The translations under genes and the position numbers were made by a program. Positions 1 through 20,904 of a stretch of DNA of 64,000 nucleotides are shown here, piece by piece; position 1 is the stretch's first letter, and each line of letters opens with the position of its first letter. The notes under the pieces were generated by a model. It saw only the letters and a list, made by a program, of their open reading frames with translations, was not told the DNA's origin and did not search any database. Source of the DNA: Bdellovibrionota bacterium (GTDB lineage Bacteria > Bdellovibrionota_C > UBA2361 > OMII01); NCBI GenBank assembly GCA_044337105.1, contig JBIIOE010000005.1, forward strand, positions 84 through 64,083, given 5' to 3'.

Positions 1-20
1 GATATTTTTGTTACGCGCTC

Positions 21-1001
21 TTAGTACTCGGTTTCGGGCGGATTTGAGGGCCCCGCCGCCGCTATAGTCCAGGCCGGGAACCACTCGATATCCTTAATTA
101 CGAACCCTAAATCGACGGTCAACCGCTTGTGCAGGTCTGCGAGATGCCCTGCCCCATAAAAGATAGCAAGGTGCCTCTTGCCTGCAGCGAGCTCTCGATT
201 CACAACCTCGATAACGGCCTGATTTCTATCGTGAATCAAGGCGAGCCCCTGATCCCCTTCCATAATTTTAAGAAAGGATTCGGACTCCAACATGCCTCTC
301 GCCATAAAACGCTTGATAGTCAGCTGCTCGGGAGGTGTTGGCCCCCGCATTAACATCAAAAGAGGATTGAGCCCTTTGAGCGAATCTGCAGTGCGCTCAA
401 TCTCTTTAGCCCTCCTCTGAAAGCTCGGATCCCTCGACACTGTCAGCATCCTCCACAGGAGATCCAAGAGACTCTCCCCCCTGGCGTTCATCGCCGCCTG
501 AAGCTGCGCCGGAGATAGATCGGCATGCACAAAGTTCGGAGCTTGGTAGTCGATGTACTCTAGCTGAAACGACAACCCCATCAGATCAGAGAGCCGCTTC
601 TGAAACCATCCCAGCCCTGAGCTGGCCGTCTTTGAGTTCAAATGTTTCAATCTTGCCGGATCGGCCACGAGCTCATACAGAACACTCTCGTACTCCTTGA
701 AGCGACGATTCAGATCCCGGTAATACGATTCGTCCCCAATGTGCACCGCTCCTATGTAATCGAGCCTGACACCTTTAGCGCTACCTTTTGCTCCCTCGTA
801 TCGAACCAAAGGAACCTGGAGCACCCCGGCAGTACCGTTCTCCAAGCCCTCTAACCTCATCATCTGAGGCGGCAGCTCGACTCTCGACACCTCCGGGCGA
901 GAGAGGTCCCGAACTGTGAGCACGATCGCAATCGTGAGCGCCACCCCGATGAAAGCGACCGTTTTCAACGACCGTCCAATTCCAAGCATGTTCATACCCA
1001 C
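21..1001 (-). CDS. TraB/GumN (TIKI-superfamily) membrane-anchored protein
   Basis: N-terminal TM; motifs IGAVHIG, YELV, ADLS, RNQAV and FYGAGHL match the TraB/PrgY/GumN metal-ligand pattern. Confidence 0.6.
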   Translation of the reverse strand: MGMNMLGIGRSLKTVAFIGVALTIAIVLTVRDLSRPEVSRVELPPQMMRLEGLENGTAGVLQVPLVRYEGAKGSAKGVRLDYIGAVHIGDESYYRDLNRRFKEYESVLYELVADPARLKHLNSKTASSGLGWFQKRLSDLMGLSFQLEYIDYQAPNFVHADLSPAQLQAAMNARGESLLDLLWRMLTVSRDPSFQRRAKEIERTADSLKGLNPLLMLMRGPTPPEQLTIKRFMARGMLESESFLKIMEGDQGLALIHDRNQAVIEVVNRELAAGKRHLAIFYGAGHLADLHKRLTVDLGFVIKDIEWFPAWTIAAAGPSNPPETEY

Positions 1002-1121
1002 GAAAGTTTAGCGACCTATTAAACCAGGGAAACACGGTGAGTCTGCAAGGAGAGCTCCTGAATCCACCCCTTCCAATCGCAACCCACTTGTGTGTTATAC
1101 AATAGTTCAGGAGAGACGCGC

Positions 1122-2486
1122 ATGATTATTCAGAAATTCGGCGGCACATCGATGGGTTCGAGCACCAGTATTCTTGAGCAGGTGTGCCCTATTATTCAGA
1201 AATCCCTCGCAGAACACTCTCTGCTGACAGTAGTGGTCAGCGCCATGAGCGGCGTAACCTCGTTGTTACTCGAGGCTGCGCATCGCGCCGCTACGAAACA
1301 GGTGGTCGATCTCGAAATCCTACGCACTATTCGTGAAAGACACCTCAGCGTTGCCACTGCACCAGCTATCACGAGCTCTGAACGCCAGAAATTCGAGACC
1401 ACCCTCGACACAGAGCTGCAGCGGCTCAGTAATCTACTATCCGCCATCGGAATCATACAGGACCTGCCAGTAAGGTCGCAGGATGCAATTATAGCCGTAG
1501 GAGAGACCCTCTCTGCACATCTGCTGGTCGCGGCCCTCAACTCTCTCGGCACTCGTGCGGAGTACGTGGACACTGCGCACATCATTTCTTCGGCCTTGCG
1601 TTACGAGTCAGACGAGTATTGGGACAAAGTCGAGACTATCTTCAGAGACACACTACAACAGGTAACTCATGGGCATGTGCCAGTAGTTCCTGGATATTTT
1701 GGAGACACTGCTCTCGGAATCATCGCCTCCGTTGGTAGAGGCTACTCGGATTACTCTGCAAGCTTGATCGGGAGCGCGCTTGGCGCATCCGAGGCGCAGA
1801 TCTGGACGGACGTGGACGGCGTTCTGTCAGCCAATCCGAAGGTCGTTCCCTCTGCCTTCATTTTAAAGCGCATCTCATACGACGAGATGGCAGAGCTGTC
1901 GCAGTTCGGAGCTAAGGTGCTCCATCCCTTTAGCGTCAGACCTGCGGTCAACTCGGGGATTCCGATGCGTATCCTGAACACCTTCAATCCAACCTGCCAA
2001 GGCACACTGATCGAAGTACAGCACTCCTCCTCCGAAAACCCCTTCAAATCAATCGCATACAAGAAGGCCATTACAGTCGTACGAATTACGACCCCGAGAA
2101 TGCTCATGTCTCACGGTTTTCTCGGGCAGATCGGAGAGATCCTTGCGCGACACCATGTCAGCATTGATCTCATCGCCACCTCTGAAGTGAGCATCTCCTT
2201 CACGATGGATGACGGCTCCAAGTACGCACCTGCTCTGCACGAAGACCTCTCTGCCTTGGGAGATGTGTCTGTGTCTGCGGGACAGGCGATAGTAAGTATC
2301 GTCGGTACGGAGATTGCAGGATGTGATGATCTTCTACCGCGCGTATTCACCTCTCTTCATCGCGCAGGGATCAAGGTAAACCTCATCTCTTTTGGAGATC
2401 TGAAAATTAACTTGAGCATCATCGTGGACGATCTCACCTGCGAGCAGGCTGTAAAAACGCTACACGACGAGTTTTTTCGGCGCTAA
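1122..2486 (+). CDS. lysC: Aspartate kinase (monofunctional, two ACT domains)
   Basis: QKFGGTS, VVVSAMSGVT, GRGYSDYSA, IWTDVDGV and ELSQFGAKVLHP motifs; ATG at 1122 follows AGGAGA. Confidence 0.95.
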   Translation: MIIQKFGGTSMGSSTSILEQVCPIIQKSLAEHSLLTVVVSAMSGVTSLLLEAAHRAATKQVVDLEILRTIRERHLSVATAPAITSSERQKFETTLDTELQRLSNLLSAIGIIQDLPVRSQDAIIAVGETLSAHLLVAALNSLGTRAEYVDTAHIISSALRYESDEYWDKVETIFRDTLQQVTHGHVPVVPGYFGDTALGIIASVGRGYSDYSASLIGSALGASEAQIWTDVDGVLSANPKVVPSAFILKRISYDEMAELSQFGAKVLHPFSVRPAVNSGIPMRILNTFNPTCQGTLIEVQHSSSENPFKSIAYKKAITVVRITTPRMLMSHGFLGQIGEILARHHVSIDLIATSEVSISFTMDDGSKYAPALHEDLSALGDVSVSAGQAIVSIVGTEIAGCDDLLPRVFTSLHRAGIKVNLISFGDLKINLSIIVDDLTCEQAVKTLHDEFFRR

Positions 2487-2592
2487 CTTTTGCTGGAGAA
2501 GCGAGGTACAGCGGGCTTCCCTCAAGCAGTCAGAACCACCTCGACATCTTGCTCAAGGAACGCGCGGAGCGAAAAGGCGGCGCCGCCCCTCT

Positions 2593-3711
2593 TTACAGAA
2601 GCTCAACATTTGCTCGTGGCACAGTAACGATGCGGCCATCGTCCAGACGCGCCGTCAGAACTCGCGACCACGCACCCGTTTCGATCCTTTGCGGATCGTG
2701 CGGCAGGTCCTCAACCGTCCCTGATTGACCGAAGAAAGGGACACGAATCAATCGCACCCTGGAGCCGACCTGCAGACCTGTTGCACCAGCCTCCTCGCGA
2801 ATGGACGAGCCAAATTGCACGTGAGCAGCTGAAATTATCTCGGGGCGCACAGCCCCTGCGCGCACCTGCGTCGCTCCGTTGAGCGATGCTCTCGCCCCAT
2901 TCATAGCTCGCAAGGTTTCCCACACACGTTGTCCCATCGGTAGCGGGCCGAATCCTTCGGTTACGATGAGAGTCATCGAAATATTCTCGTCACCCGTAAC
3001 AGCGACGCCGATGTCGCGACCGACATACTCTCGTAATGTGTGGTCGTCTATGGAACCGGTGACAAATCCTACCGCCCCGGCATCGCGCGCTTTCAAAACC
3101 GCTCCCAGAGTCGGGCTCCGACCTCCAATCAATATCGCTCCGGGAGCCTCTGCAGGAACATGAGACTCCGAAACTACCGCGAAAGGTTCGACATCGAGCA
3201 CCTGAACTGTGCCGATTCTTTCACCACCTACCCCGAAAATTCCCTGAACAAACGAAGCTTCGGACTCGAGTACTACCGCGCGCTCCCCTTCCACTTCAAC
3301 GACGAGCCCTTCAAGATATGCGGACAATTCGAGCTTCCGAGGAGCCGCCCGTATTCCGAGGTGACCCGTCGACTCTGTGACGAACTCAACGATTCCCGAG
3401 ATCGGTGCCGTGATGGTGCTCCTGAAGAGTCCCCACAAACCTCGTATCTCTGCGAGAAGCTCGCCTTCGCTTACGTATGTGCCAACAGCAACGCGCAGAG
3501 TCTTTTCTACCTCTTGCGGGGTAACGCACAACGTTTCTGCCACGCGAATCAAGCGCACCTCTCCTTCGAGGTAGGCCCGGGCTATTATCTGCTCTCTGGA
3601 TACCGCATCTCCCTTTTTGACAAGTATCTCTCCCGCGATCGGTAATTCGCGTCGCCTCCTCACTACGTGATGTGAGGACACTGTAAGACCGGGAGCAAAT
3701 ACGTGTGCCAT
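2593..3711 (-). CDS. Uncharacterised protein with repeated barrel-sandwich-hybrid (lipoyl/RnfC-N-like) motifs and a C-terminal KOW/SH3-like module
   Basis: LVKKGDAVSREQIIA, VAVGTYVSEGELLAE..ITAPISGIVE and LQVGSRVRLIRVPFFGQSGTV; starts 4 nt after the stop of the GlmL-like gene. Confidence 0.75.
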   Translation of the reverse strand: MAHVFAPGLTVSSHHVVRRRRELPIAGEILVKKGDAVSREQIIARAYLEGEVRLIRVAETLCVTPQEVEKTLRVAVGTYVSEGELLAEIRGLWGLFRSTITAPISGIVEFVTESTGHLGIRAAPRKLELSAYLEGLVVEVEGERAVVLESEASFVQGIFGVGGERIGTVQVLDVEPFAVVSESHVPAEAPGAILIGGRSPTLGAVLKARDAGAVGFVTGSIDDHTLREYVGRDIGVAVTGDENISMTLIVTEGFGPLPMGQRVWETLRAMNGARASLNGATQVRAGAVRPEIISAAHVQFGSSIREEAGATGLQVGSRVRLIRVPFFGQSGTVEDLPHDPQRIETGAWSRVLTARLDDGRIVTVPRANVELL

Positions 3712-3715
3712 ACGT

Positions 3716-5530
3716 TTACGAGATCAGTTCGAGGTTACGATATACTTGGCTTTGAGCGTGCGCCGTATCTGCCGGCATCACTATGGGCCTGTTCCGACCG
3801 TCACAGAGAATTCCACACTCTCCGAGTTCAACACGCCGCTCTATTACTTCTCCAACACCCGCGCCAACATTCACCGAGCGCTTCAGCGGCACAACTCTAA
3901 TTGTAGCCTTTCCACGTGCAGGAGTAGGAATGCGCACGACCTCGTGGGCGCGAACCTCGCCAACTCGATGGGAATCAAGAAAGACCTCGGCCAGTACGGA
4001 TGATTGGGGTAGCTTGGACGAATACACCGGGACTACCACACAGCCGAGATGAACGAGACAGTCATTCTCGAATATCTCCTGCGCTGCAACGGGATGAACA
4101 GACCCGAGCACACCCAGATGCGGCATCATGAAGATAGAGTCCACAGAGAGCTGAGTGACACCTTCGAGACCAAAGCCTTCGAGCATCATGAGCGCAGCTT
4201 GCATACGAACAGGGGCGTGACTCAGAACTCCTCCCGAACCTATCACGACGTCGAGCTTCATCAGATCGACCAATTCGTATCTCTCGGATGACTGCCGGAA
4301 TACGTCCGCTATTCCTTTATCCTTCGGAGCCTCGAGCCCCACCGCCAAAGAGCGATGGTGCTTGAGCGATAGGCGGAGCGCCTCACGGCACACAGCTTGT
4401 TCCACGAAGAGGTCTTCGACCGTTTGCGGAATAGAAGTTGGACGAATCATCTTGTTGAGCAGCCGATCGCGCAACTCCGAGTCTTCAATCTCGAATGGCA
4501 GCCATCTTTTAATCGATTCAGTGCCTGCTTCGAGCAAAACGTTTGCAACTGAATAGGACATACCAAGATTGGCACTCACCGTCCGATTGAAAGTCGGAAC
4601 CCCTGCCTTGTTTCGAAAAACAGAGAAAACATCGGTCGTGGCGCCGCCTATATCAACACACAAGACATTGTAACCACTCGTGGCACTATAGCGCTCGACT
4701 ATCTCTCCAACCGCAGCCGGCGTCGGCATGATCGGAACAGGACTCCACGACATGAGCCTTCCGTACCCTGGTGAATGACTCATAACATGAGAGAGGAAAA
4801 ACTCGTGAATGGCCCCTCGAGCAGGTCCTAAGTTCTCGCGCTCAATCGTGGGTCGAACATTTGGCACTACCACTAACTGCGCAAATCGCGAGAGAATACT
4901 TTGCACCTCGGCCGCGGCGTCAGCATTACCCGCATAGATCACCGGAAGCTTCAACGTATCTCCGAATCGAGGACGCGGCGCGGCAGCTACAAGTATCTCG
5001 GCCATCTCGACAACGTGCTGCGTAGATCCCCCATCTACCCCGCCGGTCAACAGGACGATATCCGGCTTTATGTGTCGAATTCGCTCAATCCGCTCATAGT
5101 CTTCGCGCGCATCGTCGGCCGAAACCGCATCCATAACGATCGCTCCAGCGCCGAGTGCTGCCCTCTCCGCCGATTCGGTCGTGATGTTTCCCACAACTCC
5201 GGCTACCAGCATCTGCAATCCGCCTCCTGCCGAGCTGGTCGAAAGATAAAGGTCTATCCCAGTCGCAGGATCGCTGCCAGTTAACAGGAACGGACTCTCT
5301 CCGGGTGATAGAATCGAGCGGGCGCTCAGTTCCTGGACCTCAGCAAACGCATTGAGCGCTCCTACTGTGACATCCGCAACTGGTTCCTCGACGGTCGTCG
5401 GCGCCTCACCGCGGAACGTTTGACGCCAGCGATCCGGACCTCGCTCGAAGAGTAGCGCCTTGGTCGTAGTAGACCCGCAGTCCGTTACCAGAACAGTCTT
5501 CAGCTCCTCTATTCTCGTTTTCATCGTCAT
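3716..5530 (-). CDS. GlmL/MutL-like (glutamate mutase L family) ASKHA-fold ATPase with C-terminal extension
   Basis: Actin-like motifs DCGSTTTK, DIGGATTD and GSGGVLSH, plus SSAGGGLQM, RTVSANLGMSYS; ATG at 5530 overlaps upstream TGA (ATGA), so the 5647 start is an over-extension. Confidence 0.88.
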   Translation of the reverse strand: MTMKTRIEELKTVLVTDCGSTTTKALLFERGPDRWRQTFRGEAPTTVEEPVADVTVGALNAFAEVQELSARSILSPGESPFLLTGSDPATGIDLYLSTSSAGGGLQMLVAGVVGNITTESAERAALGAGAIVMDAVSADDAREDYERIERIRHIKPDIVLLTGGVDGGSTQHVVEMAEILVAAAPRPRFGDTLKLPVIYAGNADAAAEVQSILSRFAQLVVVPNVRPTIERENLGPARGAIHEFFLSHVMSHSPGYGRLMSWSPVPIMPTPAAVGEIVERYSATSGYNVLCVDIGGATTDVFSVFRNKAGVPTFNRTVSANLGMSYSVANVLLEAGTESIKRWLPFEIEDSELRDRLLNKMIRPTSIPQTVEDLFVEQAVCREALRLSLKHHRSLAVGLEAPKDKGIADVFRQSSERYELVDLMKLDVVIGSGGVLSHAPVRMQAALMMLEGFGLEGVTQLSVDSIFMMPHLGVLGSVHPVAAQEIFENDCLVHLGCVVVPVYSSKLPQSSVLAEVFLDSHRVGEVRAHEVVRIPTPARGKATIRVVPLKRSVNVGAGVGEVIERRVELGECGILCDGRNRPIVMPADTAHAQSQVYRNLELIS

Positions 5531-6243
5531 CCGTACCCCACCAGTTGGAGAATCGCGGAAAGCCAATCCCGTACGATGAACTGAACACGCTCGACCAGAA
5601 GAGACAAACGAGCCATGACCGTCGAACCAAAGAAGGCGCCGAAACAAACCATAAGGAGCGGCCTACCCAGCGGCGCTATCTTGCCTTGAATCGAGCCCTC
5701 TTTACCAAAGGTGAAGAAGAAATAATTGAATACAAGTAGCAAGGTCGCTACGAAAAGCGCGTTGTTGAAGCTCGCCATCGCTGAGAACTCACCCTCTACA
5801 TACACGATGAGGGGCTTGAAGCTACCGACTATCTGCGGCAGCGCCTCTGCAAAAAAACCTCGGATTGCCAAAGCTCCGGACAAGCCGAGCGAAAAACCTA
5901 TTACAAGGCGCGCCAGCCATGCATGACGCTTGGAATATATGAAGTAGTAGAGTGAGCCAAATGCCATCGGTAGGAGATACAGAAGGAAGAGAGGTTGATA
6001 CAGCTCCGATACGGTACCATCCGGATAAACTACACTGTTCGAACCAAGCATTGGCTCAATAACCTTGGGCCACAAGAAGTCACGAACCGTCAGCACCGGC
6101 AACACAGCGGCTGCCAGACCTATGAAGATGTGCTCGAAGAGGCGATAGAAGGCATTCTCGCGAATGAGGAAGCTGAAGATAGCCAGTGTCGCTACTCCTC
6201 CCAGAAGCACTGAAGACGTCGACCACAAAGAAGCATCAACCAT
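5527..6243 (-). CDS. Polytopic membrane protein, unknown function
   Basis: About 6-7 hydrophobic segments; coupled to both neighbours (GATGGTTGA and ATGA junctions). Confidence 0.8.
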   Translation of the reverse strand: MVDASLWSTSSVLLGGVATLAIFSFLIRENAFYRLFEHIFIGLAAAVLPVLTVRDFLWPKVIEPMLGSNSVVYPDGTVSELYQPLFLLYLLPMAFGSLYYFIYSKRHAWLARLVIGFSLGLSGALAIRGFFAEALPQIVGSFKPLIVYVEGEFSAMASFNNALFVATLLLVFNYFFFTFGKEGSIQGKIAPLGRPLLMVCFGAFFGSTVMARLSLLVERVQFIVRDWLSAILQLVGYG

Positions 6244-7096
6244 CGCCTTGGCTCCTAGCTCGAACAAACCCGACTATGTTTCCCGCTACGATAAGCAGTA
6301 TCAACACTACATGCGCGATGATGAGAGCGGTATTCCGCACCAGAAGGTCCTCATTCGGGCTCTGCGGGTTGTGCTGCTTCAATACCTCCGAGTACCACGC
6401 AGCTCCAGCTACCCCCTCGAGCAATCCATGAAGCTGCTTGGAATCGAGAAAGATGTACGCCTCTGGAATTGTGATAGAGGTGCATCCATGGACAATCGTT
6501 GGACGATACCCACTCTTCTGGAAGAATTGAATAATCGTGTCGAATACCCCAACCAGTCCAGTAATCTCAGCCACGAGCTTCACCTGCTCAATACCGCCGA
6601 TCGACGCGAAGGCGGGATAGTGCGTGAACGGCATCCCGTTGACGTCTCTTCCAAAATACTTCGAAAGGTCCTTTGCAGCGGCCAGATTCTGCATCATCTG
6701 CGCGCCACCGGGCTGGTATCCTGCGTTGATCCAAGCCTCTCCATAACGCCACGACTGAGCAGGCATCTCCTTCTCGAGGCGAGCAGCTACCTCACGCGGT
6801 ATAGAGTTCAAAACAGCTTCTGCCAATTGGTACTGCGAGAGCACCACCACAGGTATGCGACGACGGAATAGGTGCTCGATGACGACCTCGGCCTGCGGCT
6901 TATTTTCCGCGATCGTCCCGGGTCCAAAGTCCATCCAAAGCAACGCTACCTCTCCCTGCTTTATCTGAACTTGCTCGACTACTTCATACATCCGCTCAGC
7001 GGACACCAGACGCGACGGGGGCCACGAGAATTCGAAGATGACCGGGATGGATACCGCGACTATCATCACCAAGTATATCAAGCGTCTCTCAATCAT
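6236..7096 (-). CDS. Membrane protein with N- and C-terminal anchors and a large soluble alpha/beta domain
   Basis: TM at both ends; central domain DFGPGTIAE..GYQPGG..HGCTSITIP; ATGA overlap with upstream gene. Confidence 0.8.
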   Translation of the reverse strand: MIERRLIYLVMIVAVSIPVIFEFSWPPSRLVSAERMYEVVEQVQIKQGEVALLWMDFGPGTIAENKPQAEVVIEHLFRRRIPVVVLSQYQLAEAVLNSIPREVAARLEKEMPAQSWRYGEAWINAGYQPGGAQMMQNLAAAKDLSKYFGRDVNGMPFTHYPAFASIGGIEQVKLVAEITGLVGVFDTIIQFFQKSGYRPTIVHGCTSITIPEAYIFLDSKQLHGLLEGVAGAAWYSEVLKQHNPQSPNEDLLVRNTALIIAHVVLILLIVAGNIVGFVRARSQGDG

Positions 7097-8196
7097 TTTC
7101 TGTCGCCAGCTCCGAAGGATTTCGACTCAATGGAGAGCCACATGCGAATGGCAAGCATGAGGCCGGCGACACCGGCACCGAGCCGAATGGCCCTAAATGC
7201 CGCGCTGTTTGGCACTTCCAGCAACCACTGTCGTACCTGGGGGAGAGTCTTGTAGGCATCTTCACCGAATGTGCCGAGATTGAGCATCAGAAAGACAGCG
7301 GATATCTGGCCTAACATCACGACGACTGCCGCGCTCATCATCAACGCAGATTCAAAGGTTCGAACCCGGAAGGCCCGGTATGCTGCTGCGGCGATGTAAA
7401 CCCCCAAGAGTGAGAACATCGCCGCCCCAAGCTGTACGAAGAGGCCGTTGTACATCACATCGTACAAGCGAGAAAAAACGGTCAGCGACTGGTCTGATTG
7501 CCGTAGCGCCGAGTACGCCCCACCGAGCCGGTTTGCCCCATCGACGAACTCCTTCAAGACAACTTGATTGCTCTCTGTCAGAGATGCAAAGTCTGCTGAT
7601 TGCACCTTCTGCAGGGGTACTGCGAGCGCCTCTGCGGCGCTACGCAATTCGGCTGCCAAGACCTTGCGAGCTTCGTCCGAGGAATCCGCGGCCGAATGAT
7701 GGGAACTCTCTGGGGGCGCAGTCAGCGCAGCCAGCTTTGCCTCGCTATATCGGACGAGCGCCGAAATGCGCTCTGCAAGTGGCGGAACCGCCGATCGCCG
7801 GTCCGCATCCCGCTCGTCGTCTGTTATTCTGGTAGCAAACTCCCCGATGAGCTGCACCTCTCGAATGTCATACGAGGTTGTCAGTCCATTCATCCACTGA
7901 CCACACGTGACCACGAGCATGGACACAAGCGCGACAAGGAGAGCGAGGCTGTTACCCCAACCCGATCGCTTGAACACAACCTTACCACCGTGCCCTATGA
8001 TGAGATTGATCAACCCTAATCCGATCGCCATCGCTCCGACGACGATAAAACCATTGGTGATCGACTCATGACGCTCGCTGACACCAAGGCCCGCGAGTAG
8101 CGACTCCGGAAGGAGAAAATGCAAGAAGAAGTAGACTCCTCCGAGGAGCGTGACGATACGAATAAGAGTAGCGCGTCGATCTATCAAACTGGTCAT
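7093..8196 (-). CDS. Polytopic membrane protein with a helical soluble insertion
   Basis: 3 N-terminal TMs, a helical insert, and C-terminal TMs with FSLLGVYIAAAAYRAFRVR; GGAGG upstream of ATG 8196. Confidence 0.8.
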   Translation of the reverse strand: MTSLIDRRATLIRIVTLLGGVYFFLHFLLPESLLAGLGVSERHESITNGFIVVGAMAIGLGLINLIIGHGGKVVFKRSGWGNSLALLVALVSMLVVTCGQWMNGLTTSYDIREVQLIGEFATRITDDERDADRRSAVPPLAERISALVRYSEAKLAALTAPPESSHHSAADSSDEARKVLAAELRSAAEALAVPLQKVQSADFASLTESNQVVLKEFVDGANRLGGAYSALRQSDQSLTVFSRLYDVMYNGLFVQLGAAMFSLLGVYIAAAAYRAFRVRTFESALMMSAAVVVMLGQISAVFLMLNLGTFGEDAYKTLPQVRQWLLEVPNSAAFRAIRLGAGVAGLMLAIRMWLSIESKSFGAGDRK

Positions 8197-8207
8197 CGGT
8201 CTGGTGC

Positions 8208-9074
8208 CTACCTCCACACACTACTATCAACGAGCGACTCGAATCGCACGAGGGATTCCAGCCACCCTCTCCACACCGTCCAGTCGGCGACCAAGAGGTG
8301 ATGAGGCATCCATTCCCGAAAAACAGGATGGAACTGCGCCGCTGTGGCGCACACCACTCCCAGAACAACGAAGACCCCAAACAGGAGCTTTACGCGGTCC
8401 TGAGCGGCCAGCGCCGCAACCTGGATGGGCTCTCTGCTCATGTACGCCGATGCACCGAAAAGCTCCTCTCCGATCAGTGTGTAGTCACAGGTGCATATGA
8501 AGAAAGCAACCTGCTCGGGACTGACACTCGCTGCAACCTGACGCGCACCAACCTGTTGACCAGCCTCGGCCAAGACGAGAGCCTCAGCCGCGAACACACC
8601 AAACATGAAGGCAGCGCCCGCTTGCTCTCGGTGAACGAGCCCCATGTAACCCGAGGCGAAAGCAAACTGCTCGCTGGAGAGGAACACGATACTTTTCGGA
8701 TCGAATGTATTGGCTCGCCCGGCAGCTCTGTAGGCCTCGCGCACAGTATCTTCCACGATCGCCATCGCTTCTGGGGAGTACTGAGGAACGAGTAATTTCA
8801 ATTTATACTGTGCAGTCCGCTTCGCTATCGAGTGAAGGACTCCGAGACAAGCGAAGAGCACCGGCCCCACATCGGTCAAAGCCGTCGTAAACACCACGGG
8901 CCTGCCCAACTCAGCGCATCGCCCGACCGCGCTCTCGATCGCATCGACCCCAGGAATGCGACGGATGAAGTGCCGATGACCGCTGTTTGCGCGCGCCAAC
9001 TGGCGAAAGAGCATCCATCCCGCAAAAGCGAGCAGTGCTAGTACACCGGGAGTTGCATGTTCGAGACCACCCAT
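8208..9074 (-). CDS. DUF6754-type membrane protein
   Basis: FIRRIPGVDAIESAVGRCAELGRP and CDYTLIGEELFGASAY match my recollection of DUF6754; TMs at both ends. Confidence 0.7.
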   Translation of the reverse strand: MGGLEHATPGVLALLAFAGWMLFRQLARANSGHRHFIRRIPGVDAIESAVGRCAELGRPVVFTTALTDVGPVLFACLGVLHSIAKRTAQYKLKLLVPQYSPEAMAIVEDTVREAYRAAGRANTFDPKSIVFLSSEQFAFASGYMGLVHREQAGAAFMFGVFAAEALVLAEAGQQVGARQVAASVSPEQVAFFICTCDYTLIGEELFGASAYMSREPIQVAALAAQDRVKLLFGVFVVLGVVCATAAQFHPVFREWMPHHLLVADWTVWRGWLESLVRFESLVDSSVWR

Positions 9075-9076
9075 GA

Positions 9077-9421
9077 CTACGCTTCTGTCCCCTTTGCATC
9101 TTCCAGTCGGCGAATTAAGAGCTCCACGTTATCGCTCGACGAAAGGACTCGCTCTAGCGCTGGAGCAAAAGCCGAACTAAAGAGCATGCGCATGAGAGGC
9201 TCCCCAACCTTGTAGATCTCCCGCGCGCATCCGACCAGAGGCTTACTCATCTCCAAAACGAAGATGGCTGGCTCGACAAGTTTTCTCGCTCGAATGGCTC
9301 GAACGAGACATTCGAGATCGGCATCGGCTTCTCCACGCATATCTCGAACGTATTCGAAAACGTCACGTTGGGAAAGGATCTGTTGGGGTAGAGAGCAAAA
9401 AGCTCCCCCTTGTGAAAACAA
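9077..9421 (-). CDS. Small hypothetical helical protein
   Basis: Co-oriented; ends 2 nt before the DUF6754 gene start; protein-like composition. Confidence 0.6.
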   Translation of the reverse strand: MFSQGGAFCSLPQQILSQRDVFEYVRDMRGEADADLECLVRAIRARKLVEPAIFVLEMSKPLVGCAREIYKVGEPLMRMLFSSAFAPALERVLSSSDNVELLIRRLEDAKGTEA

Positions 9422-9466: not shown

Positions 9467-10306
9467 CTAGCGACCTCTACCTCGAAGATCTCGTTCGAGC
9501 TGCTCACGCTCTTGACGCACGCGCGCAAGTTCACCCTTGACGACATCTATCTGTAGCCCCGTGGTAGCCTCAATCAAGGCCAGTTTCTGCTTCAACTCAG
9601 CCGAGGCCGCTGCAACTCGTTGAAGCGCACTTGCTTCGGTTGTCTTGAGTGCCGTGGATAGATCATTGAGCTGCTCCGAGAGCTCTGCCTCTCGGCGCTG
9701 GAAATTCGGGGGAATCGGTTGTGTTTTCAAGGCCTCAAGATGTCGGGTCGCTAGCCCGAGCGATGTCTGCAACCTTTGCACATCCGAGCTGACTACTTCG
9801 AGCTCGTCCTCGGCATCGACGATCTTGCTCACATTAGCCACCACATCAGCGTCGTCTTGCAGCCGATTGAGCGTCGTCTCCTGCGCACGAAGCTGAACTT
9901 CCCATTTCTCGAGAGCAACTCGCTGCTCGCGCAATCGCGATTCGATCGCAGCATTGTCAAGCAACACGATCGGCTCTGCATCAATCGAGGAGATCTCACG
10001 CACGCCCGAGGCTACCTCTCCGGACTTGGAGACCACGACTGCCAACGAAGAGAGCCGTTCGTCTGCGACCGGAACCGCCAATCTGCCGACGACGAGCACC
10101 TCGTCTTTCACATCTGTATTGACCAGCAGCGCTGCGCTCGCACCAATGATTCCACGATTGGCCGAGACCACGAGAGATGCGGACGCAGGCTCTCCCATAA
10201 CATGAACAGTTTGGCTGATGGTAACCACTCGAACCTGCGCAGTCGCTGATGAGGCTACACCTGCCACGAATGCGAGTGCCACGCGAAATGCCCTACTGCA
10301 AACCAC
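9467..10306 (-). CDS. Exported coiled-coil protein
   Basis: Signal-peptide-like N-terminus (..VASSATAQ); heptad-rich C-terminal half. Confidence 0.7.
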   Translation of the reverse strand: MVCSRAFRVALAFVAGVASSATAQVRVVTISQTVHVMGEPASASLVVSANRGIIGASAALLVNTDVKDEVLVVGRLAVPVADERLSSLAVVVSKSGEVASGVREISSIDAEPIVLLDNAAIESRLREQRVALEKWEVQLRAQETTLNRLQDDADVVANVSKIVDAEDELEVVSSDVQRLQTSLGLATRHLEALKTQPIPPNFQRREAELSEQLNDLSTALKTTEASALQRVAAASAELKQKLALIEATTGLQIDVVKGELARVRQEREQLERDLRGRGR

Positions 10307-11252
10307 GATAGAACTCCTCCTCAGTCGATGTCTCGTCCTCTGTGCCGCGGTACCGATCTAATGTGTCGATCTCCTCTATTCGCCGACGCTCTTCATTGAT
10401 TTCGTCCTGAACCGCCTTTATCCGATTAGCTCGCTCGAGCTGCTCCTCGAAGCCAGGCGTGGTCTCAGGGGCCAATAGCTTGAGGGTAATCTCTATCCAG
10501 CGCGACTCGCGCAGCAAGCTCTCTCGGCTCAGAAACGCCAATCGCCCTGCGGGAGAAACTCGCTGCGAGATCTCGACATTTCGAATCGTGGCATCGAGCG
10601 TCGCCCGTACTTTTCCTAAATCCGTGCGCGCGCCATCCAGCGCACTCGAGGTGCTACTGAGTCGCGATGTTGCCTTTTCTCTGAGAGACTCGTCGTCCAC
10701 GAGAAAACGGCTCAACCTCTCCATCTTGGTCTTTTGGGAGTCATACCTGCGCTTTATCTTCTCGATTGCACCCTCCACCTTCTGCAATTCAGTGACTAGA
10801 GCAACCCACGCAGACAGATCGCTATCTTCTCGACCCCGCCCCTCATCGATCTCTACTTTTTGGAGATACCAGGTACCCCTTCTATTTTTTATTGGATCCA
10901 GGCACTCGCCTTCATAGCGCTTGTCGTCCTTGCGAATACCACTAAGCCTCAAACGAGACTCGCCTCCAGTTACGATCAGCGGCAGACGACTCTTACCGAG
11001 AGGATCCTGGATCGGTGCATATTGCGCTTGGGTAGTTTGGTCGCCGAGAGCGACGAGCAAGGCTGGAGATCTCGTCCCTCGTTCTATATACAAAGGAACA
11101 CCTATATCCTGCCTTTCGTAGAGAACCATTCCCACGTACACACCCTGAGGCAGGTCCGGGAAGGACCGTGACATGTCGCGCCAAAACAGATAGCCAACGA
11201 GAACAAGAGCAACGATCGAAATCGCCAATACAGAGAGAAGAGCCCGTCGCAT
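10293..11252 (-). CDS. Membrane-anchored protein with C-terminal coiled coil
   Basis: MRRALLSVLAISIVALVLVGYLFW anchor (ATG 11252); helical C-terminal half; overlaps next gene by 14 nt. Confidence 0.7.
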   Translation of the reverse strand: MRRALLSVLAISIVALVLVGYLFWRDMSRSFPDLPQGVYVGMVLYERQDIGVPLYIERGTRSPALLVALGDQTTQAQYAPIQDPLGKSRLPLIVTGGESRLRLSGIRKDDKRYEGECLDPIKNRRGTWYLQKVEIDEGRGREDSDLSAWVALVTELQKVEGAIEKIKRRYDSQKTKMERLSRFLVDDESLREKATSRLSSTSSALDGARTDLGKVRATLDATIRNVEISQRVSPAGRLAFLSRESLLRESRWIEITLKLLAPETTPGFEEQLERANRIKAVQDEINEERRRIEEIDTLDRYRGTEDETSTEEEFYRGLQ

Positions 11253-11463
11253 GATTGTGAAGTGTACTAGCCTCCTCGAAGGACAGCAATTTGCCAATCA
11301 GAAGTCGAACAAGAACATCTCGTGCACCCTTACTCAAGGCTCGACCTTGTAGAGTTTCTTCGAAAATCCGTCGTTAACCAACCATCAAGCACCGGATCTC
11401 TCCGGGGTAAGCTCCGACGATCCCTACTGAAGTCTCTGATTAGGCATTTCTGAGCCTTCCGGC

Positions 11464-11537: not shown

Positions 11538-11921
11538 ATGAAAAGGCAGACTAAACAGCGATCCGTCGTGCAGCGCTTGTTCGAACAAGCGCAACGCCCC
11601 CTCAGCCCTATCGAGGTATTCGAGCAGGCTCGCACCGAGCTACAGGCGATAAGCTTGGCCACTATTTATCGAACTCTTAAAACGCTGCTTGACGAAGGCG
11701 CGCTCGTGCCAGTTTCTCTTCCCGGGCTGCCCGATCGGTATGAGACGCGCGGATGCGCCGATCATCACCACCACCATTTCCACTGCGACGATTGCGGACG
11801 TGTGTTCGACGTCCCAGGGTGCGGCTTGCATTCCAGTGTTCACATTCCATCAGGCTTCTCGGTCAAGAGGCATGAGGTCGTACTGTACGGCGCATGTCGT
11901 GAATGCTCCGCCCTCAATTAA
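11538..11921 (+). CDS. Fur-family transcriptional regulator, probably Zur
   Basis: ISLATIYRTLKTL HTH; HHHHHFHCDDCG and GACREC zinc motifs; directly upstream of a ZnuD-like receptor. Confidence 0.9.
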   Translation: MKRQTKQRSVVQRLFEQAQRPLSPIEVFEQARTELQAISLATIYRTLKTLLDEGALVPVSLPGLPDRYETRGCADHHHHHFHCDDCGRVFDVPGCGLHSSVHIPSGFSVKRHEVVLYGACRECSALN

Positions 11922-11952
11922 CCCAACTGCTTTTTTCAGGTGTCATATGTGT

Positions 11953-13995
11953 ATGAAGATGAAGTTGTATTGCAGCCTATTACTGTCACTCACTGCCGTA
12001 GTATGTTCGTTCGACTACGCACGTGCCGAAGATGCGCCGCAGCCCTCCAGCCCCGACTACAAGCTGGATAAATTGGTAATCGAGTCGTCGCCACTCCAGC
12101 AGACCTTGTTCGAATCGGCTCAACCTGTTTCTGTGCTCTCGGGAAGCGACCTAGATCTCAAGGCACAGACCTCTCTAGGCGACACACTCGCCATGGAACC
12201 AGGTGTCTCCTCGTCGTCGTTCGGACCTGCAGCCGGTCGTCCCGTCATTCGTGGACTTGGTGGCGATCGTATACGCGTACTCGAGAACGGGGTTGGAACA
12301 CAAGACGTATCGAACAGCAGCCCCGATCACGCAGTCACGATCGAACCTTCGTTAGTTGAGAAGATAGAGGTTATCCGCGGACCAGCCTCACTCCTATACG
12401 GAACGAGCGCAGTGGGCGGAATCGTCAACGTCTTCGACAATCGCATCCCTGAAAAGCTTCCTGAGGCCCCTATCGCCGGAAGCGTGGAGGTGCGAGGAGA
12501 GAGCGTGAACTCGGGAAGGAGCGCTCTCATGGACGTGACAGCTCCAGCCGGACCATTTGCCTTCCACGTCGATGGATTCAAGCGACGCACCGATGACATC
12601 CGCATTCCCGGATTTGCGCGCACGGAATCGCTTCAAGAGGACGCCGAGATCGATTATCCCGAGCCGCGCGGAAAGATCCCTTTTAGCGGCAGCGAATCTG
12701 ACAGCTTAACCTTAGGGTCCTCGTACATCTTCGACAAAGGTTTCATCGGGGCGTCAGTCAGCGAACTCAACACCAACTATGGAGTGCCAAACGGAGAGGA
12801 AGACATCAGCATCGATGCCAGAAGGCGGCGTGTCGATGTGCGCGGCGCACTGCGGGACAAAGACTCTTTCATAGAGTCCATTTCGACCCGTATGGGGATC
12901 ACCGATTACGAGCACACGGAATTCGAAGGCTCTGAAGTAGGAACACGCTTCGATCAGAACGCCTTTGAGGGACGAATCGACATGAAACACGCCTCCGTTG
13001 CGTCGATTACAGGCTCGTGGGGTCTTCAGCTTCAAACCAATGAAATCCAAGCCGTCGGAGAAGAGGCGTACCAGCCACCCACAGATAGCAAGATATACTC
13101 GCTATTCGCACTGGAGGAAGCAGCAGTATCAGACTCCCTCACCTTACAGCTCGGCGGTCGCTTCGATTGGTCTGATCTCGACACTTCAGGTTTCGACATT
13201 GGCGCAGAGGATGACAGCAGTCGCTTCTTTACGACCTTCAGTCAGTCAGCCGGTGCAGTATGGGAGCTTTCGAACCCCTATTCGCTGGCGTTGTCAGTTG
13301 CACACTCGGAGCGCGCGCCGAATGGCCAGGAGCTTTTCACCAATGGTCCACACGTCGCCACGGGATCATTCGAGGTTGGCGATCCAGATCTGGACATCGA
13401 GCGCTCTCTTGGCACTGACCTGACTCTGCGTAAGACGAGCGGCACGATTCGCGGATCGATCGGCGGATTCTACAACCACTTCTGGAACTACATCGCCCTC
13501 AATCCCACAGGGGGCGTAGAGGACGACCTGCCAGTGTACGGGTATGAGGCCGTAAACGCGGACTTCGTCGGCTTCGAGTCGCAGGTAGCTGTCTTTGTCG
13601 TGGACAAGCCTGGAGAGGAGATCTCCTTCGACATCCAACCAGACTACGTGCACGCCAAGGATCGCGACAACAACACCAATTTACCTCGTATTCCGCCTTT
13701 CCGTTTGAGGACAGGCGTCAACTACTTCCATGAGGATCTTTTTCGAGCGCGCTTCGAGGTTCAGCAGGTCTTTGCGCAGCGCGAGACAGCCGATTTCGAA
13801 ACATCGACCGACGGCTACACCATGATGAATGCGTATCTCAGCAAGGAGATTCCGATGGGAGATCACGTACTGGAGGTATTTCTGCGCGGTAGCAATCTCC
13901 TGAACGAGAAAGCTCGAAACCACGTCTCTTTCATCAAAGATGTGGCACCACTACCAGGAGCCTCTGCACTCCTCGGCGTGCGCATTCGATTCTGA
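11953..13995 (+). CDS. TonB-dependent receptor, ZnuD-like (zinc uptake)
   Basis: Signal peptide; plug SFGPAAGRPVIRGL..SPDHAV; IEVIRGPASLLYG; C-terminal Phe; true start near 11947-11959, not 11689. Confidence 0.9.
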   Translation: MKMKLYCSLLLSLTAVVCSFDYARAEDAPQPSSPDYKLDKLVIESSPLQQTLFESAQPVSVLSGSDLDLKAQTSLGDTLAMEPGVSSSSFGPAAGRPVIRGLGGDRIRVLENGVGTQDVSNSSPDHAVTIEPSLVEKIEVIRGPASLLYGTSAVGGIVNVFDNRIPEKLPEAPIAGSVEVRGESVNSGRSALMDVTAPAGPFAFHVDGFKRRTDDIRIPGFARTESLQEDAEIDYPEPRGKIPFSGSESDSLTLGSSYIFDKGFIGASVSELNTNYGVPNGEEDISIDARRRRVDVRGALRDKDSFIESISTRMGITDYEHTEFEGSEVGTRFDQNAFEGRIDMKHASVASITGSWGLQLQTNEIQAVGEEAYQPPTDSKIYSLFALEEAAVSDSLTLQLGGRFDWSDLDTSGFDIGAEDDSSRFFTTFSQSAGAVWELSNPYSLALSVAHSERAPNGQELFTNGPHVATGSFEVGDPDLDIERSLGTDLTLRKTSGTIRGSIGGFYNHFWNYIALNPTGGVEDDLPVYGYEAVNADFVGFESQVAVFVVDKPGEEISFDIQPDYVHAKDRDNNTNLPRIPPFRLRTGVNYFHEDLFRARFEVQQVFAQRETADFETSTDGYTMMNAYLSKEIPMGDHVLEVFLRGSNLLNEKARNHVSFIKDVAPLPGASALLGVRIRF

Positions 13996-14115: not shown

Positions 14116-14568
14116 TTACCCAACACCGAGTAATTCGACCTCGAATATGAGGGTTGCATTGGGAGGAATTACTCCGCCTGCGCCCCGCGAGCCGTATCCA
14201 AGGCCCGGTGGAATCATGAGAGTGCGAACGCCACCGACCTTCATCCCAGCGACGCCTTCATCCCATCCGCTGATGACCTGGCGTGCGCCGAGGTTGAAGT
14301 CGAAGGGCTCCCCACGATCTTTTGAACTGTCAAACTTCGCGCCTGGCGTGCCGTCCTTATCGAGCCACCCAGTGTAGTGCACGGTCACACTCTGTCCTGG
14401 CTTTGCTTCGGCACCGGTGCCTACCTTGTCGTCTCGGTATTTGAGTCCCGACGCTGTTGTCACGACCTCAGCCTGTGTCTTCTCCATCTTCTTATCCTCT
14501 CCGAATCCGGTAACGGGAGCCCCTAAAACGACCCCTACCGCCACTATTATTGCCAGATATCTTTTCAT
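14116..14568 (-). CDS. FKBP-type peptidyl-prolyl cis-trans isomerase, exported
   Basis: [30 protein letters not shown] and [13 protein letters not shown]; signal peptide from ATG 14568. Confidence 0.95.
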
Positions 14569-14886
14569 ATCTTCCTTTATGGTTTCCCCAAGTACCTTTG
14601 CACGGAGCCGCGACATGTCGCAGCGTCGGCTGCCTCTCGTTACCCCATGCGGTACCGCGCATAGTCCACCGACCTGCACTTTCATTCAACTATCGAAAAA
14701 CAGGCTACGTTATTTCAACAGATTACCCGCGCCGCGTCGCCTCCAACGGGTCCCCAGTGGCATATTGTACGCAGGTGAATCAAAATCGGCCTGTAGTGCA
14801 AAAGTAGTGATTTGCCTCGGTTCACTCATGGTCATTTTCGAGCCAACCGGTTATTATATCGAAAGAAATTTTAGTGTGAGCGTTTT

Positions 14887-15444
14887 ATGATGCAGAGTCC
14901 TGACCAGTCCGGTTTTCTGACGACCAACCTCGAGAGCGCCCTTGCCTGGGCTCGGAAGTATTCATTGTTTTCGTATCCGTTCGTCACGGCCTGCTGCGGG
15001 ATGGAGTTCATGTCAGTGAACTGCTCCCACTACGATACAGACCGCTTCGGGGCAGCACTTCCGCGATTCACACCAAGACAATCAGATCTCTTGTGGGTCG
15101 TAGGAACGGTCAACCACAAACTTGCGCCGGTTCTATTGCGAGTTTACGAACAGATGGCTGAACCAAAGTGGGTGGTAGCGTTTGGAGCATGCGCGTCCTC
15201 CGGCGGCTTCTACGACAACTACACGACGGTAGCAGGCATAGACAAAATCATCCCTGTCGATATGTACATCCCTGGATGCCCACCTCGTCCGGAGACGGTG
15301 TTAGACGCGCTCATGAAGTTACAGAGCGACATTCAACGTTCGCGGCAGCAGGTAGTTCCATCTCAAGGCGGAAAACAGTATCACCCCGATCTACCACCCC
15401 TTCTGGGAGAGCCTATCGATACGAGACTTACAAAGCCGGTGTAG
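14887..15444 (+). CDS. nuoB: NADH-quinone oxidoreductase subunit B (stand-alone)
   Basis: TACCGMEF, PRQSDL, FGACASSGG and PGCPPRPE N2-cluster motifs. Confidence 0.92.
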   Translation: MMQSPDQSGFLTTNLESALAWARKYSLFSYPFVTACCGMEFMSVNCSHYDTDRFGAALPRFTPRQSDLLWVVGTVNHKLAPVLLRVYEQMAEPKWVVAFGACASSGGFYDNYTTVAGIDKIIPVDMYIPGCPPRPETVLDALMKLQSDIQRSRQQVVPSQGGKQYHPDLPPLLGEPIDTRLTKPV

Positions 15445-20126: not shown

Positions 20127-20904
20127 TGGACACCTTTGACGTCAGGGATCCAACTTGAATAAGGGGTATAGTCAGAAAGCACACAATCAGGCCGGCAAAG
20201 GTCAGAACTAGGGGTAGCACAGCCTTGACCGGAAGTTTTGCTATCTCCTCTTCGACGCTCTCCTGGTAGTACGTTTGGGTCGCATCACTAAGCTCCTTGA
20301 GTGGGCGGACGAGCTCTCCACCTTGCTGATAGGCCAAGGCGAGATGGACAAAACAGTGCTTCACCGCTGGGCAGGGCACTCCTCGAGATATCGAGCGCAG
20401 CGAGTCCGCCACTGGCAGCCCCGCCTCGGCCAAGTCAACCACCTCGGACAGAAGAGCAGAGACGGGATCAGTGACACGAGATGACGCCTCACGCAGAGCG
20501 GGTACGATATCCAGCCCCGATCCCACCGCCATGACGATACGCTCCATGGTCATGGGGAGATTCAATTCCATACTCTTGACGAGTCGTGCGGCACGTCGCT
20601 CCTTACGACGCCGATACCACAGCTCTCCCGCGAGCGCTCCCAAAAGACCAAACAGTACCTCCTGAGGTCCGACGACAACCCCAAGTGCGCGACGCAGGAG
20701 AAGCATGCAGAGTGCTCCGACGATCCAAGCTACAACTCTGGGCCACTCATAGCATCGATTACCCGATACCTCGCCGCTGTGAGCTTGCGGGGTGGCGTCT
20801 TCGTCAGAGATCAAGGTGGAAGCCACTCTATTGCATCGAGTCTTGTCGGAGCCAACGACAAAAAGCAGCAAGCCAACCGCAAAAATGAGTAAGCTCCACA
20901 TCAT
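20107..20904 (-). CDS. tadC: TadC (T2SS F-family) platform protein
   Basis: LPMTMERIVMAVGSGL..L..LKELSD..EEEIAKLPVKAVLPL pattern. Confidence 0.8.
   Translation of the reverse strand: MMWSLLIFAVGLLLFVVGSDKTRCNRVASTLISDEDATPQAHSGEVSGNRCYEWPRVVAWIVGALCMLLLRRALGVVVGPQEVLFGLLGALAGELWYRRRKERRAARLVKSMELNLPMTMERIVMAVGSGLDIVPALREASSRVTDPVSALLSEVVDLAEAGLPVADSLRSISRGVPCPAVKHCFVHLALAYQQGGELVRPLKELSDATQTYYQESVEEEIAKLPVKAVLPLVLTFAGLIVCFLTIPLIQVGSLTSKVSNAAVEQ

Follow-up and report, generated by a model that had tools for sequence, protein, structure and literature searches.

Members of the actin-fold ASKHA superfamily act as kinases, chaperones, reactivases or filaments; in the reactivases of diol dehydratase and ethanolamine ammonia-lyase (DdrAB, EutA), the ASKHA ATPase is a repair chaperone. 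GlmL/MutL and the ornithine-degradation protein Or-4 belong to one Pfam family of this superfamily, and the sole role attributed to the GlmL family is chaperoning or reactivating glutamate mutase (PMC4682846). Canonical glmL sits between glmS and glmE, as in the annotated glmS-glmL-glmE-mal locus of Peptoclostridium acidaminophilum, which served as our reference. Here we describe a locus at positions 2593–9074 (minus strand) of a 64,000-nucleotide stretch, hereafter the window, from a Bdellovibrionota bacterium (GenBank assembly GCA_044337105.1, contig JBIIOE010000005.1, positions 84 to 64,083). In this locus, a GlmL-like ATPase (E) and a barrel-sandwich protein (F) are encoded with four membrane proteins (A, B, C, and D, of which A is a DUF6754 protein). 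From genomic context and predicted structure, we regard the chances as evenly balanced that E-F and ABCD form a bipartite ATP-coupled inner-membrane machine of an undescribed kind.

E matched the Pfam MutL family (PF13941) over the full length of the model (E = 2e-118; 396 bits for a cut-off of 27), and it shares with GlmL and Or-4 the ASKHA fold and the three nucleotide motifs. These are the phosphate-1 motif DCGSTTTK (aa 17–24; 5459–5482), the phosphate-2 motif DIGGATTD (aa 293–300; 4631–4654), and the adenosine motif GSGG (aa 431–434; 4229–4240), all on the minus strand and placed from the translation. They are invariant in an alignment of 11 E sequences from at least six phyla. E remained under the cut-offs of the more specific NCBIfam models, with 213 versus 475 bits for NF040745 (GlmL), 204 versus 600 for NF040744 (Or-4), and 171 versus 204 for TIGR01319. 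It is 29% identical to annotated GlmL, with which it is collinear over aa 10–490 (~480 residues), and it carries ~110 additional residues at its C-terminus that have no counterpart in canonical GlmL. By comparison, E orthologues from Bdellovibrionota, Nitrospirota, Fermentibacteria, Eisenbacteria, and Sumerlaeota are 46–64% identical (88% between two sequences of the Fermentibacteria group), and the mean column identity across phyla is 62%, so that E resembles its orthologues in other phyla much more closely than it resembles GlmL. Searches by sequence or profile found no relatives of E among solved structures.

An earlier note on this locus, made from the DNA letters alone, had listed these three ATP motifs and had seen neither mutase subunit nor any B12-binding motif in the window. 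The motifs are present as listed, and the absence was borne out with genuine mutase proteins as queries. GlmS, GlmE, and methylaspartate ammonia-lyase (Mal) of the reference locus had no match in the window (phmmer against all open reading frames (ORFs) of at least 40 aa; tblastn at E ≤ 1). The same three queries had no match in 165 related loci (±10 kb), including 94 that bear E. A search with another GlmS sequence and a scan for the DxHxxG motif were also negative. The description "mutase-less" holds in the window and throughout the E subfamily, as far as ±10 kb shows. E was never found beside glmS or glmE, in contrast to canonical GlmL, and is linked instead to F, the DUF6754 protein, and three further membrane proteins; the canonical locus lacks F. 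These sequence comparisons support the view that E is not a canonical glutamate-mutase accessory protein.

All six minus-strand ORFs were confirmed at 2593–9074, with sizes taken from starts supported by Shine-Dalgarno-like sequences. In the order of transcription these are A (8208–9074, 288 aa); B (7093–8196, 367 aa from the ATG at 8196, in an ORF extending to 8217); C (6236–7096, 286 aa); D (5527–6243, 238 aa from the ATG at 6243, ORF to 6267); E (3716–5530, 604 aa from the ATG at 5530, ORF to 5647); and F (2593–3711, 372 aa). A and B are separated by 11 nt and E and F by 4 nt, and the B/C, C/D, and D/E junctions overlap by 4, 8, and 4 nt, respectively. Inside this run we found no promoter-like or terminator-like sites above chance. 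The tight packing and the gene sizes agree with those given in the earlier note, which had treated the six genes as one unit; the genes are present as it stated, but the unit has to be redrawn in two respects. First, the operon continues upstream, and u114 (9077–9421, minus strand, at most 114 aa), a small conserved helical protein encoded 2 nt from A, is a conserved member of it. Second, the unit falls into two separable modules, ABCD and E-F, bridged by u114.

This modularity became apparent from the distribution of the genes. Searching cluster representatives with A returned 1,839 clusters at 50% identity, 563 of them with E ≤ 1e-30, and a DUF6754 alignment identified at least 592 confirmed loci in GTDB species-representative genomes. 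The best 80 of these are spread over Bdellovibrionota, Binatia, Planctomycetota, WOR-3, Cloacimonadota, Zixibacteria, Fermentibacteria (including Aegiribacteria), Eisenbacteria, Armatimonadota, Ignavibacteria, Sumerlaeota, Coatesbacteria, Muiribacteriota, Myxococcota, Poribacteria, Elusimicrobia, and Nitrospirota. An independent E-anchored scan of metagenome contigs, with a Fermentibacteria E as query, provided 80 further loci. The system spans ~18 phylum-level groups, mostly of uncultured bacteria. The nearest relatives of the window are freshwater metagenome-assembled genomes (MAGs) labelled Bdellovibrionales, Oligoflexia, or "delta proteobacterium". ABCD was also present on one Bacillota MAG contig (L081; related loci are numbered with the prefix L) and one Bathyarchaeia MAG contig (L082), where binning contamination or horizontal transfer is possible.

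Gene calls in these loci were crude, being the longest ORFs, and the resulting counts are approximate, probably underestimates; neighbour counts carry no correction for common descent. A, B, C, and D were found in 82, 79, 75, and 73 of 83 A-anchored loci, with B immediately behind A and almost always in the order A-B-C-D, and E and F each in 24 of the 83 (within 10 kb of DUF6754). E was linked in 11 of the 28 A-anchored loci with at least 6 kb on both sides. Where an E-anchored contig was long enough, ABCD lay no more than 8 kb away in 7 of 14 loci and F followed E in 36 of 42. With sufficient flank, the two modules are thus linked in ~40–50% of loci. An unlinked single-copy gene would be met by chance in less than 1% of cases, a rough estimate (20 kb of ~3.5 Mb) made without a computed control, and ABCD and E-F are linked far more often than this.

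At least six arrangements recur, and the two modules are joined in at least five of them. Order I, u114-A-B-C-D-E-F, is that of the window, its relatives, and Binatia, and order II, (gcvT-H-PA-PB)-(c2)-u114-E-F-A-B-C-D, is found in Fermentibacteria, Eisenbacteria, Sumerlaeota, Nitrospirota, and Kofleriaceae. Order III reads cdsA-E-F-u114-A-B-C-D, and in order IV one to three ABCD sets diverge from E-c7-F-tolQ-tolR-tolA-tolB-pal. Order V consists of u114-E-F alone, and in order VI E-F is followed by three complete ABCD sets (L017, 1–14109, Zixibacteria; L047, 1–12929, Ignavibacteria). Recurrent orders were seen across Bdellovibrionota, Binatia, Fermentibacteria, Eisenbacteria, Sumerlaeota, Nitrospirota, Zixibacteria, Ignavibacteria, Coatesbacteria, and Muiribacteriota. 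Two extra genes are lineage-specific: c2, upstream of u114, encodes two transmembrane (TM) helices with a small domain, and c7, between E and F, encodes a signal peptide, a ~190-aa domain, and a C-terminal TM helix. We found no further broadly conserved genes in the loci of the system. A fixed A-B-C-D order, E followed by F, and u114 beside A or E characterise the window and recur among the 165 loci.

Two or more ABCD sets were also present in L028, L055, L111–L113, and L115. Paralogous sets within one locus are 38–57% identical for each of the four proteins, so ABCD duplicates and diverges as a unit that shares one E-F. Conversely, u114-E-F occurred without ABCD within 8–10 kb in L092, L099, L101, L108, L121, and L131. 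The protein u114 itself, which has a conserved motif PAIFxLE..KPL, adjoins A in orders I and III and in Armatimonadota (in the latter with no E-F nearby), and adjoins E in orders II and V, including loci with no ABCD nearby. Such alternation between A in some lineages and E in others is the behaviour expected of a bridging subunit. The recurrence of E with the membrane genes across many phyla and in several gene orders, which the earlier note had named as a check on its proposal, argues for functional coupling. Its statement that similar clusters occur in anaerobes and candidate phyla and have no functional description also proved correct. Its proposal that the ASKHA ATPase has been repurposed to energise or regulate a membrane complex holds as far as the non-canonical GlmL and the linkage to membrane genes are concerned, whereas the energising step itself is one that we infer.

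With regard to the membrane module, Pfam confirmed A as a DUF6754 protein (PF20539; E = 3e-76, 256 bits for a cut-off of 27), as had been surmised. Its AlphaFold2 (AF2) model (predicted local distance difference test score, pLDDT, 85) has a TM helix at residues 9–30, a six-stranded Rossmann-like alpha/beta domain at ~40–215, and, at the C-terminus, a long TM helix. A Foldseek search of the PDB gave only weak, generic Rossmann matches (OtsA-type GT-B halves, molybdenum-cofactor carrier, and universal stress proteins), none with E < 1e-3, and no B12-binding domain was among the top matches; sequence and profile searches found no solved relatives. Invariant positions are R38, R52, E55, E164, E170, C196-D197-Y198, and E203-E204, and model confidence is lowest in the most strongly conserved stretch (AESLILAETG ... 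FFIxxCDYTLIGEE). Of 150 A representatives, 109 are extended at the N-terminus by 100 aa or more (median 301, maximum 1020), and 98 of these 109 long homologues have a signal-like or TM-like start, indicating that the extensions are exported and the DUF6754 domain is cytoplasmic; positive-inside counts agree. Among 73 extensions searched for domains, 8 had PQQ_2/BamB-like propellers, 7 PKD, and 3 fn3 domains. The A of the window is of the short form, with no exported extension. We had considered fusions of DUF6754 to B or C in homologues of 800–1000 aa and rejected them, as the extra parts were PKD or Ig-type exported domains.

B has ~6 TM segments and is usually ~215 aa long elsewhere; in the window it carries a helical insertion of ~150 aa (residues ~105–255) in the predicted periplasmic loop after TM3. 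A long B accompanied a short A in 21 of 29 cases versus 6 of 69 (Spearman −0.47, uncorrected for phylogeny). As a short A is usually accompanied by a periplasmic insertion in B, some periplasmic part seems to be required. C has a TM helix at both ends and a predicted alpha/beta domain of ~220 aa; according to positive-inside counts, the termini are cytoplasmic and the alpha/beta domain periplasmic. Its marginal profile match was to tryparedoxin, which has a thioredoxin fold (E = 0.012). D has ~5–6 TM segments and invariant N30, E37, and R212. The topology is thus as the earlier note gave it, with B and D polytopic and C doubly anchored, and A too is anchored at both ends. No Pfam family matched B, C, or D of the window, and nothing consistent appeared in 34 B, 32 C, and 27 D diverse members; profile searches found no solved relatives of B or D. 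Paralogy among A, B, C, and D, for instance of A with C or B with D, was discarded, since hhalign probabilities were all at most 8%.

F is a soluble protein whose AF2 model (pLDDT 87) comprises a barrel-sandwich hybrid and a beta-barrel (~aa 11–171), an alpha/beta domain (~190–295), and a KOW/SH3-like barrel (318–371). Foldseek gave domain-level matches only (NusG/Spt5 KOW, barrel-sandwich domains, and RraA- or PA-like alpha/beta folds), and sequence and profile searches found no solved relatives. The barrel-sandwich assignment of the earlier note was upheld at the level of the fold; as to partnership, F goes obligately with E and not with the membrane genes. In Pfam, F had sub-threshold matches to RnfC_N (E = 4e-4; 20.9 versus 25.6 bits) and Biotin_lipoyl_2. 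A role as a biotinyl or lipoyl carrier was ruled out, as the hairpin tip of the barrel-sandwich domain, A-E-x-R-G-L-W-G-L-F-R-S, in which G, L, and W are nearly invariant, has no lysine to modify and the Pfam match is below the cut-off. We saw faint BSH_YknX matches in the precomputed Pfam annotation of F homologues and a weak fold match to BesA. A periplasmic adaptor of the HlyD/MFP type was nevertheless rejected, because the window protein has no signal peptide or TM segment, and neither it nor the consensus of 63 homologues has a hydrophobic N-terminus. The RnfC_N match, together with the arrangement of the subunits, also brought up an Nqr/Rnf-like redox pump. The layout is loosely similar to that of Rnf/Nqr in that a barrel-sandwich subunit is soluble, a Rossmann-like subunit is anchored on the cytoplasmic side and another subunit on the periplasmic side, and two subunits of ~200 aa are polytopic. 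This candidate was dropped as well: NqrA and RnfC were absent from the 50 best of 1444 Foldseek matches to F, B and D have no match to the Rnf-Nqr family and no conserved cysteines, flavin and Fe-S motifs are missing, and E has no counterpart in Rnf/Nqr.

Under the reading of E-F and ABCD as one ATP-coupled machine, the cytoplasmic module would consist of the ATPase E, its obligate partner F, and the small protein u114. In the membrane module, B and D would be the polytopic components, A would present its DUF6754 domain to the cytoplasm and C its alpha/beta domain to the periplasm, and A in most lineages would add a variable exported domain (beta-propeller, PKD, or FN3) on the periplasmic side. 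E would bind and hydrolyse ATP, and F, probably with u114, would dock E to ABCD from the cytoplasmic side, with the DUF6754 domain as the most plausible site. A nucleotide-driven conformational change could then pass through ~16 TM helices, and either a substrate would be moved across the inner membrane or work would be done on the periplasmic side; within this reading, we rate substrate translocation and periplasmic mechanotransmission as about equally probable. If one E-F can serve one to three diverged ABCD sets, specificity would reside in ABCD, and E-F would act as a common engine. Gene content, ATP motifs, topology, folds, modularity, and the linkage conserved in several gene orders are borne out by the data, and the physical docking, the coupling to ATP, and the direction of work are what we infer. 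That this constitutes a new class, in which an actin-fold ATPase of the GlmL family powers ABCD inner-membrane modules to translocate a substrate or transmit force, we consider a serious possibility that falls somewhat short of probable. In such a class, widespread in diderm phyla without model organisms, one ATPase module would serve several specificity modules and would take the place of a P-loop ABC (ATP-binding cassette), AAA+, or rotary ATPase.

Several described systems resemble this layout in part. The Type VII ABC mechanotransmission systems (FtsEX-EnvC, MacB, and LolCDE) may be analogous in combining a cytoplasmic ATPase, a membrane module, and periplasmic domains, and in Cloacimonadota A is immediately preceded by a gene for an M23 (EnvC-like) peptidase. 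However, the ATPase here has an actin fold and not a P-loop, B and D show no FtsX or MacB signal, and the subunit composition is different. Energy-coupling factor (ECF) and ABC importers likewise use one energising module with several membrane components, as E-F stands beside one to three ABCD sets or apart from them; in contrast to ECF systems, there is no homology to EcfA, EcfT, or EcfS and no P-loop, and a membrane module consists of four subunits, with exported domains among them. No match to the ABC_tran, BPD_transp, FtsX, or ECF families was found in the six core proteins or u114. PilM-PilNOP, GspL, FtsA, and MreB-MreCD/RodZ are also actin-fold proteins encoded with bitopic and polytopic partners, but E belongs to the MutL family and its partners have no match to PilN/O, MreC/D, or similar proteins. 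Judged by sequence searches and predicted models, the system appears to match no known kind. We found nothing relevant in the literature searched on DUF6754, PF13941, TIGR01319, or a GlmL linked to membrane proteins or ASKHA, and public annotation calls these proteins "hypothetical" or "uncharacterized protein (TIGR01319 family)".

Several observations speak against an ATP-coupled machine. To our knowledge, no ASKHA ATPase powers a transporter or a mechanotransmission complex. About 60% of the ABCD loci with enough flanking sequence have no E-F within 10 kb, and ABCD was found with no E-F nearby in Cloacimonadota, WOR-3, Poribacteria, and Armatimonadota. The invariant acidic, Cys, and Tyr residues of A sit at the ends of Rossmann-like strands, which could indicate an enzyme or cofactor site and not a docking surface. 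Finally, the neighbouring genes are heterogeneous and name no single substrate.

The alternative that survives best, which we nevertheless consider unlikely, is that E-F is a GlmL-type chaperone or reactivase that repairs or loads a cofactor-dependent membrane enzyme ABCD, with DUF6754 as the cofactor-binding or catalytic part and no transport involved. Reactivation of glutamate mutase is the only function attributed to the family (PMC4682846), and the collinearity of E with genuine GlmL is in line with it. Moreover, the invariant E, C-D-Y, and E-E residues of A occupy positions resembling a Rossmann ligand site, and its conserved stretch is modelled with the least confidence, as ligand or partner sites often are. 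One chaperone with several paralogous clients would also fit one E-F for three ABCD sets, and the central alpha/beta domain of F weakly matches RraA-like folds. Diol dehydratase reactivase contains a domain of a fold class related to these, and the combination in E-F of an ASKHA protein with an alpha/beta domain, which we take to be of the swivelling type, resembles the domain composition of reactivases, a resemblance we treat as a lead only. Against this explanation, none of the four ABCD proteins matched a cofactor family, whether B12-binding, radical-SAM, or another, and neither the top structural matches to A nor the 165 loci yielded a B12-binding domain or a mutase, respectively. Unlike DdrAB and EutA, E-F gave no sequence or profile match to solved structures and had no B12 enzyme client near E in those loci. 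A reactivase would also leave unexplained why A has variable exported domains and C a periplasmic one.

We find it decidedly unlikely that E is a cytoskeletal or scaffolding actin-fold protein, akin to MreB, FtsA, or PilM, that organises ABCD as an envelope complex and whose ATP controls assembly. The precedents are MreB with MreCD/RodZ, FtsA, and PilM with PilNO, all ASKHA proteins with bitopic and polytopic partners. With its 62% column identity across phyla, E is as conserved as cytoskeletal actin-fold proteins are, and Tol-Pal, an M23 peptidase, an RlpA-like protein, cdsA, and rseP (the last by eye) are encoded nearby. Within the actin superfamily, however, the MutL family is listed as one that does not polymerise (PMC5597319). 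On inspection, the C-terminus of E has no amphipathic membrane-targeting helix, and both several ABCD sets per E-F and the Opp (Opp/Dpp ABC transporter) and gcv neighbours are atypical of cytoskeletal systems.

The occurrence of each module alone, in the six u114-E-F loci and for ABCD in many phyla, also raises the question of whether the two modules belong together at all. E-F, with u114, could form a soluble enzyme that uses ATP in the catabolism of amino acids or peptides, and ABCD could be an unrelated membrane system that happens to be syntenic in some lineages. Consistent with this, E-F is often directly downstream of glycine-cleavage genes, and characterised relatives sit in amino-acid fermentation operons. 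We regard such independence as very unlikely, as u114 switches between the modules, E-F stands beside duplicated ABCD sets, and in L150 the Opp genes split E from F yet the operon runs on into ABCD. In addition, inherited synteny hardly explains why the modules are linked in at least five gene orders and in many phyla.

In A, a TM helix joins a conserved cytoplasmic domain to an exported domain that varies, an architecture like that of a receptor, and ABCD could be imagined to work from the outside in, the exported domains of A sensing a periplasmic ligand and DUF6754 signalling to E-F. This seems highly improbable to us: no conserved output component (transcription factor, kinase, or cyclase) was found in the 165 loci, the A of the window has no exported domain, and four membrane subunits and an ATPase would be heavy for a sensor.

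That E is an ordinary GlmL for a mutase (of glutamate, ornithine, or lysine) whose genes lie elsewhere in the genome has the Pfam assignment to PF13941 in its favour and is, in our view, extremely improbable, given the scores below all three NCBIfam cut-offs, the identity to GlmL of 29% as opposed to 46–64% with its own orthologues in other phyla, an extra C-terminal domain and a constant partner F, both absent from the canonical locus, and, where canonical glmL lies between glmS and glmE, no match to GlmS, GlmE, or Mal in the window or the 165 loci. An anti-phage defence system is unlikely, because the genes are highly conserved across phyla and have housekeeping neighbours (PADLOC was not searched).

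If E-F does drive ABCD, this would represent a new form of energy coupling for bacterial membranes, with an actin-fold ATPase in place of the P-loop motors. It would give a first function to DUF6754 and to three unannotated families of membrane proteins, as well as to the largest and best-conserved "MutL/GlmL" branch, which current annotation misleadingly suggests to be a glutamate-mutase helper. Its presence in at least 592 loci and ~18 phylum-level groups suggests a basic physiological role in poorly studied bacteria.

Another group of observations concerns the genes that adjoin the system. GcvP was found in 20 loci, nearly always within 430 bp, and gcvT, gcvH, gcvPA, and gcvPB lay directly upstream of u114-E (L018, 1273–6469, and ~19 other loci) in loci with a GC content of 0.33–0.66. 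In some of these gcv loci (L094, L118, L128, and L140) we found no F after E. Neither the window nor seven u114-E loci, five of them with gcv upstream, had an Rfam match to a riboswitch or other RNA regulator. An Opp-like gene was present in 23 of the 165 loci, OppA in 8 (6 within 300 bp). OppA, B, and C stood between E and F in L150 (1310–8529), where the operon continues into ABCD; Opp genes flanked the system on both sides in L164 (1–14602, on a 4.06-Mb genome contig) and lay directly upstream of E in L148 (547–6276) and L157. These Opp genes belong to separate, complete systems.

Genes of envelope biogenesis were the other recurrent neighbours. The gene cdsA occurred in 13 loci, nearly always within 100 bp, and an RlpA-like protein gene was among the recurrent envelope and division neighbours. 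In one lineage (L087, L090, L112, L113, and L115), a Tol-Pal operon (tolQ, tolR, tolA-like, tolB, and pal) directly follows F, and three shorter contigs of this lineage end at tolQ. In two examples (L087, 5128–11375; L112, 14266–19555), we presumed the last gene, which was not scanned, to be cpoB-like. The M23 peptidase gene directly before A in Cloacimonadota was seen in L025, L038, L042, and L044 (positions 1–7700). Divergent upstream of A in this phylum we recognised rseP, tgt, cmk, plsC, ispH, and rpsA by eye, with no Pfam confirmation. On contigs of other organisms we found ispH-E-F (L152) and rpsA-(258-aa gene)-u114-E-F (L162). As ispH and rpsA adjoin E-F there, the E-F of Cloacimonadota may lie just beyond the 10-kb flank, which is a lead only. 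The neighbours point to peptide or amino-acid use (Opp/Dpp and glycine cleavage) and to envelope biogenesis (cdsA, rseP, M23 peptidase, and Tol-Pal), and are not decisive.

In the window itself, two clade-specific genes in the same orientation precede u114: u279 (9467–10306, minus strand), which encodes a signal peptide and a coiled coil, and u334 (10293–11297, minus strand), which encodes an N-terminal TM segment and a coiled coil. Homologues of u279 were confined to close relatives (L001, L004, L006, and L008) and those of u334 to L001, L004, and L006. The first gene of the transcription unit is probably u334, and the two proteins may supply, in the Bdellovibrionota lineage of the window, the periplasmic part that A does not have.

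The locus is flanked by an aspartate kinase gene convergent with F, and by fur and a TonB-dependent receptor gene divergent from u334. These last two lie at 11538–13995 on the plus strand; the listed receptor ORF (11689–13995) overlaps fur, and its true start is probably near the signal peptide MKMKLYCSLL, ~90 codons into that ORF. A lone NuoB-like gene (Oxidored_q6, the 20-kDa subunit of NADH:quinone oxidoreductase) follows at 14887–15444 (plus strand); no further nuo gene was identified beside it, and the ORF at 14116–14685 was not scanned. Hybrid histidine kinase and response regulator genes occupy 15428–18408 (minus strand). After this kinase block, the minus strand carries Tad/Flp-pilus-like genes, namely a T2SSF gene (20107–20904), a T2SSE/CpaF-like ATPase gene (21752–23101), and a ParA/CpaE-like gene (24195–25556).

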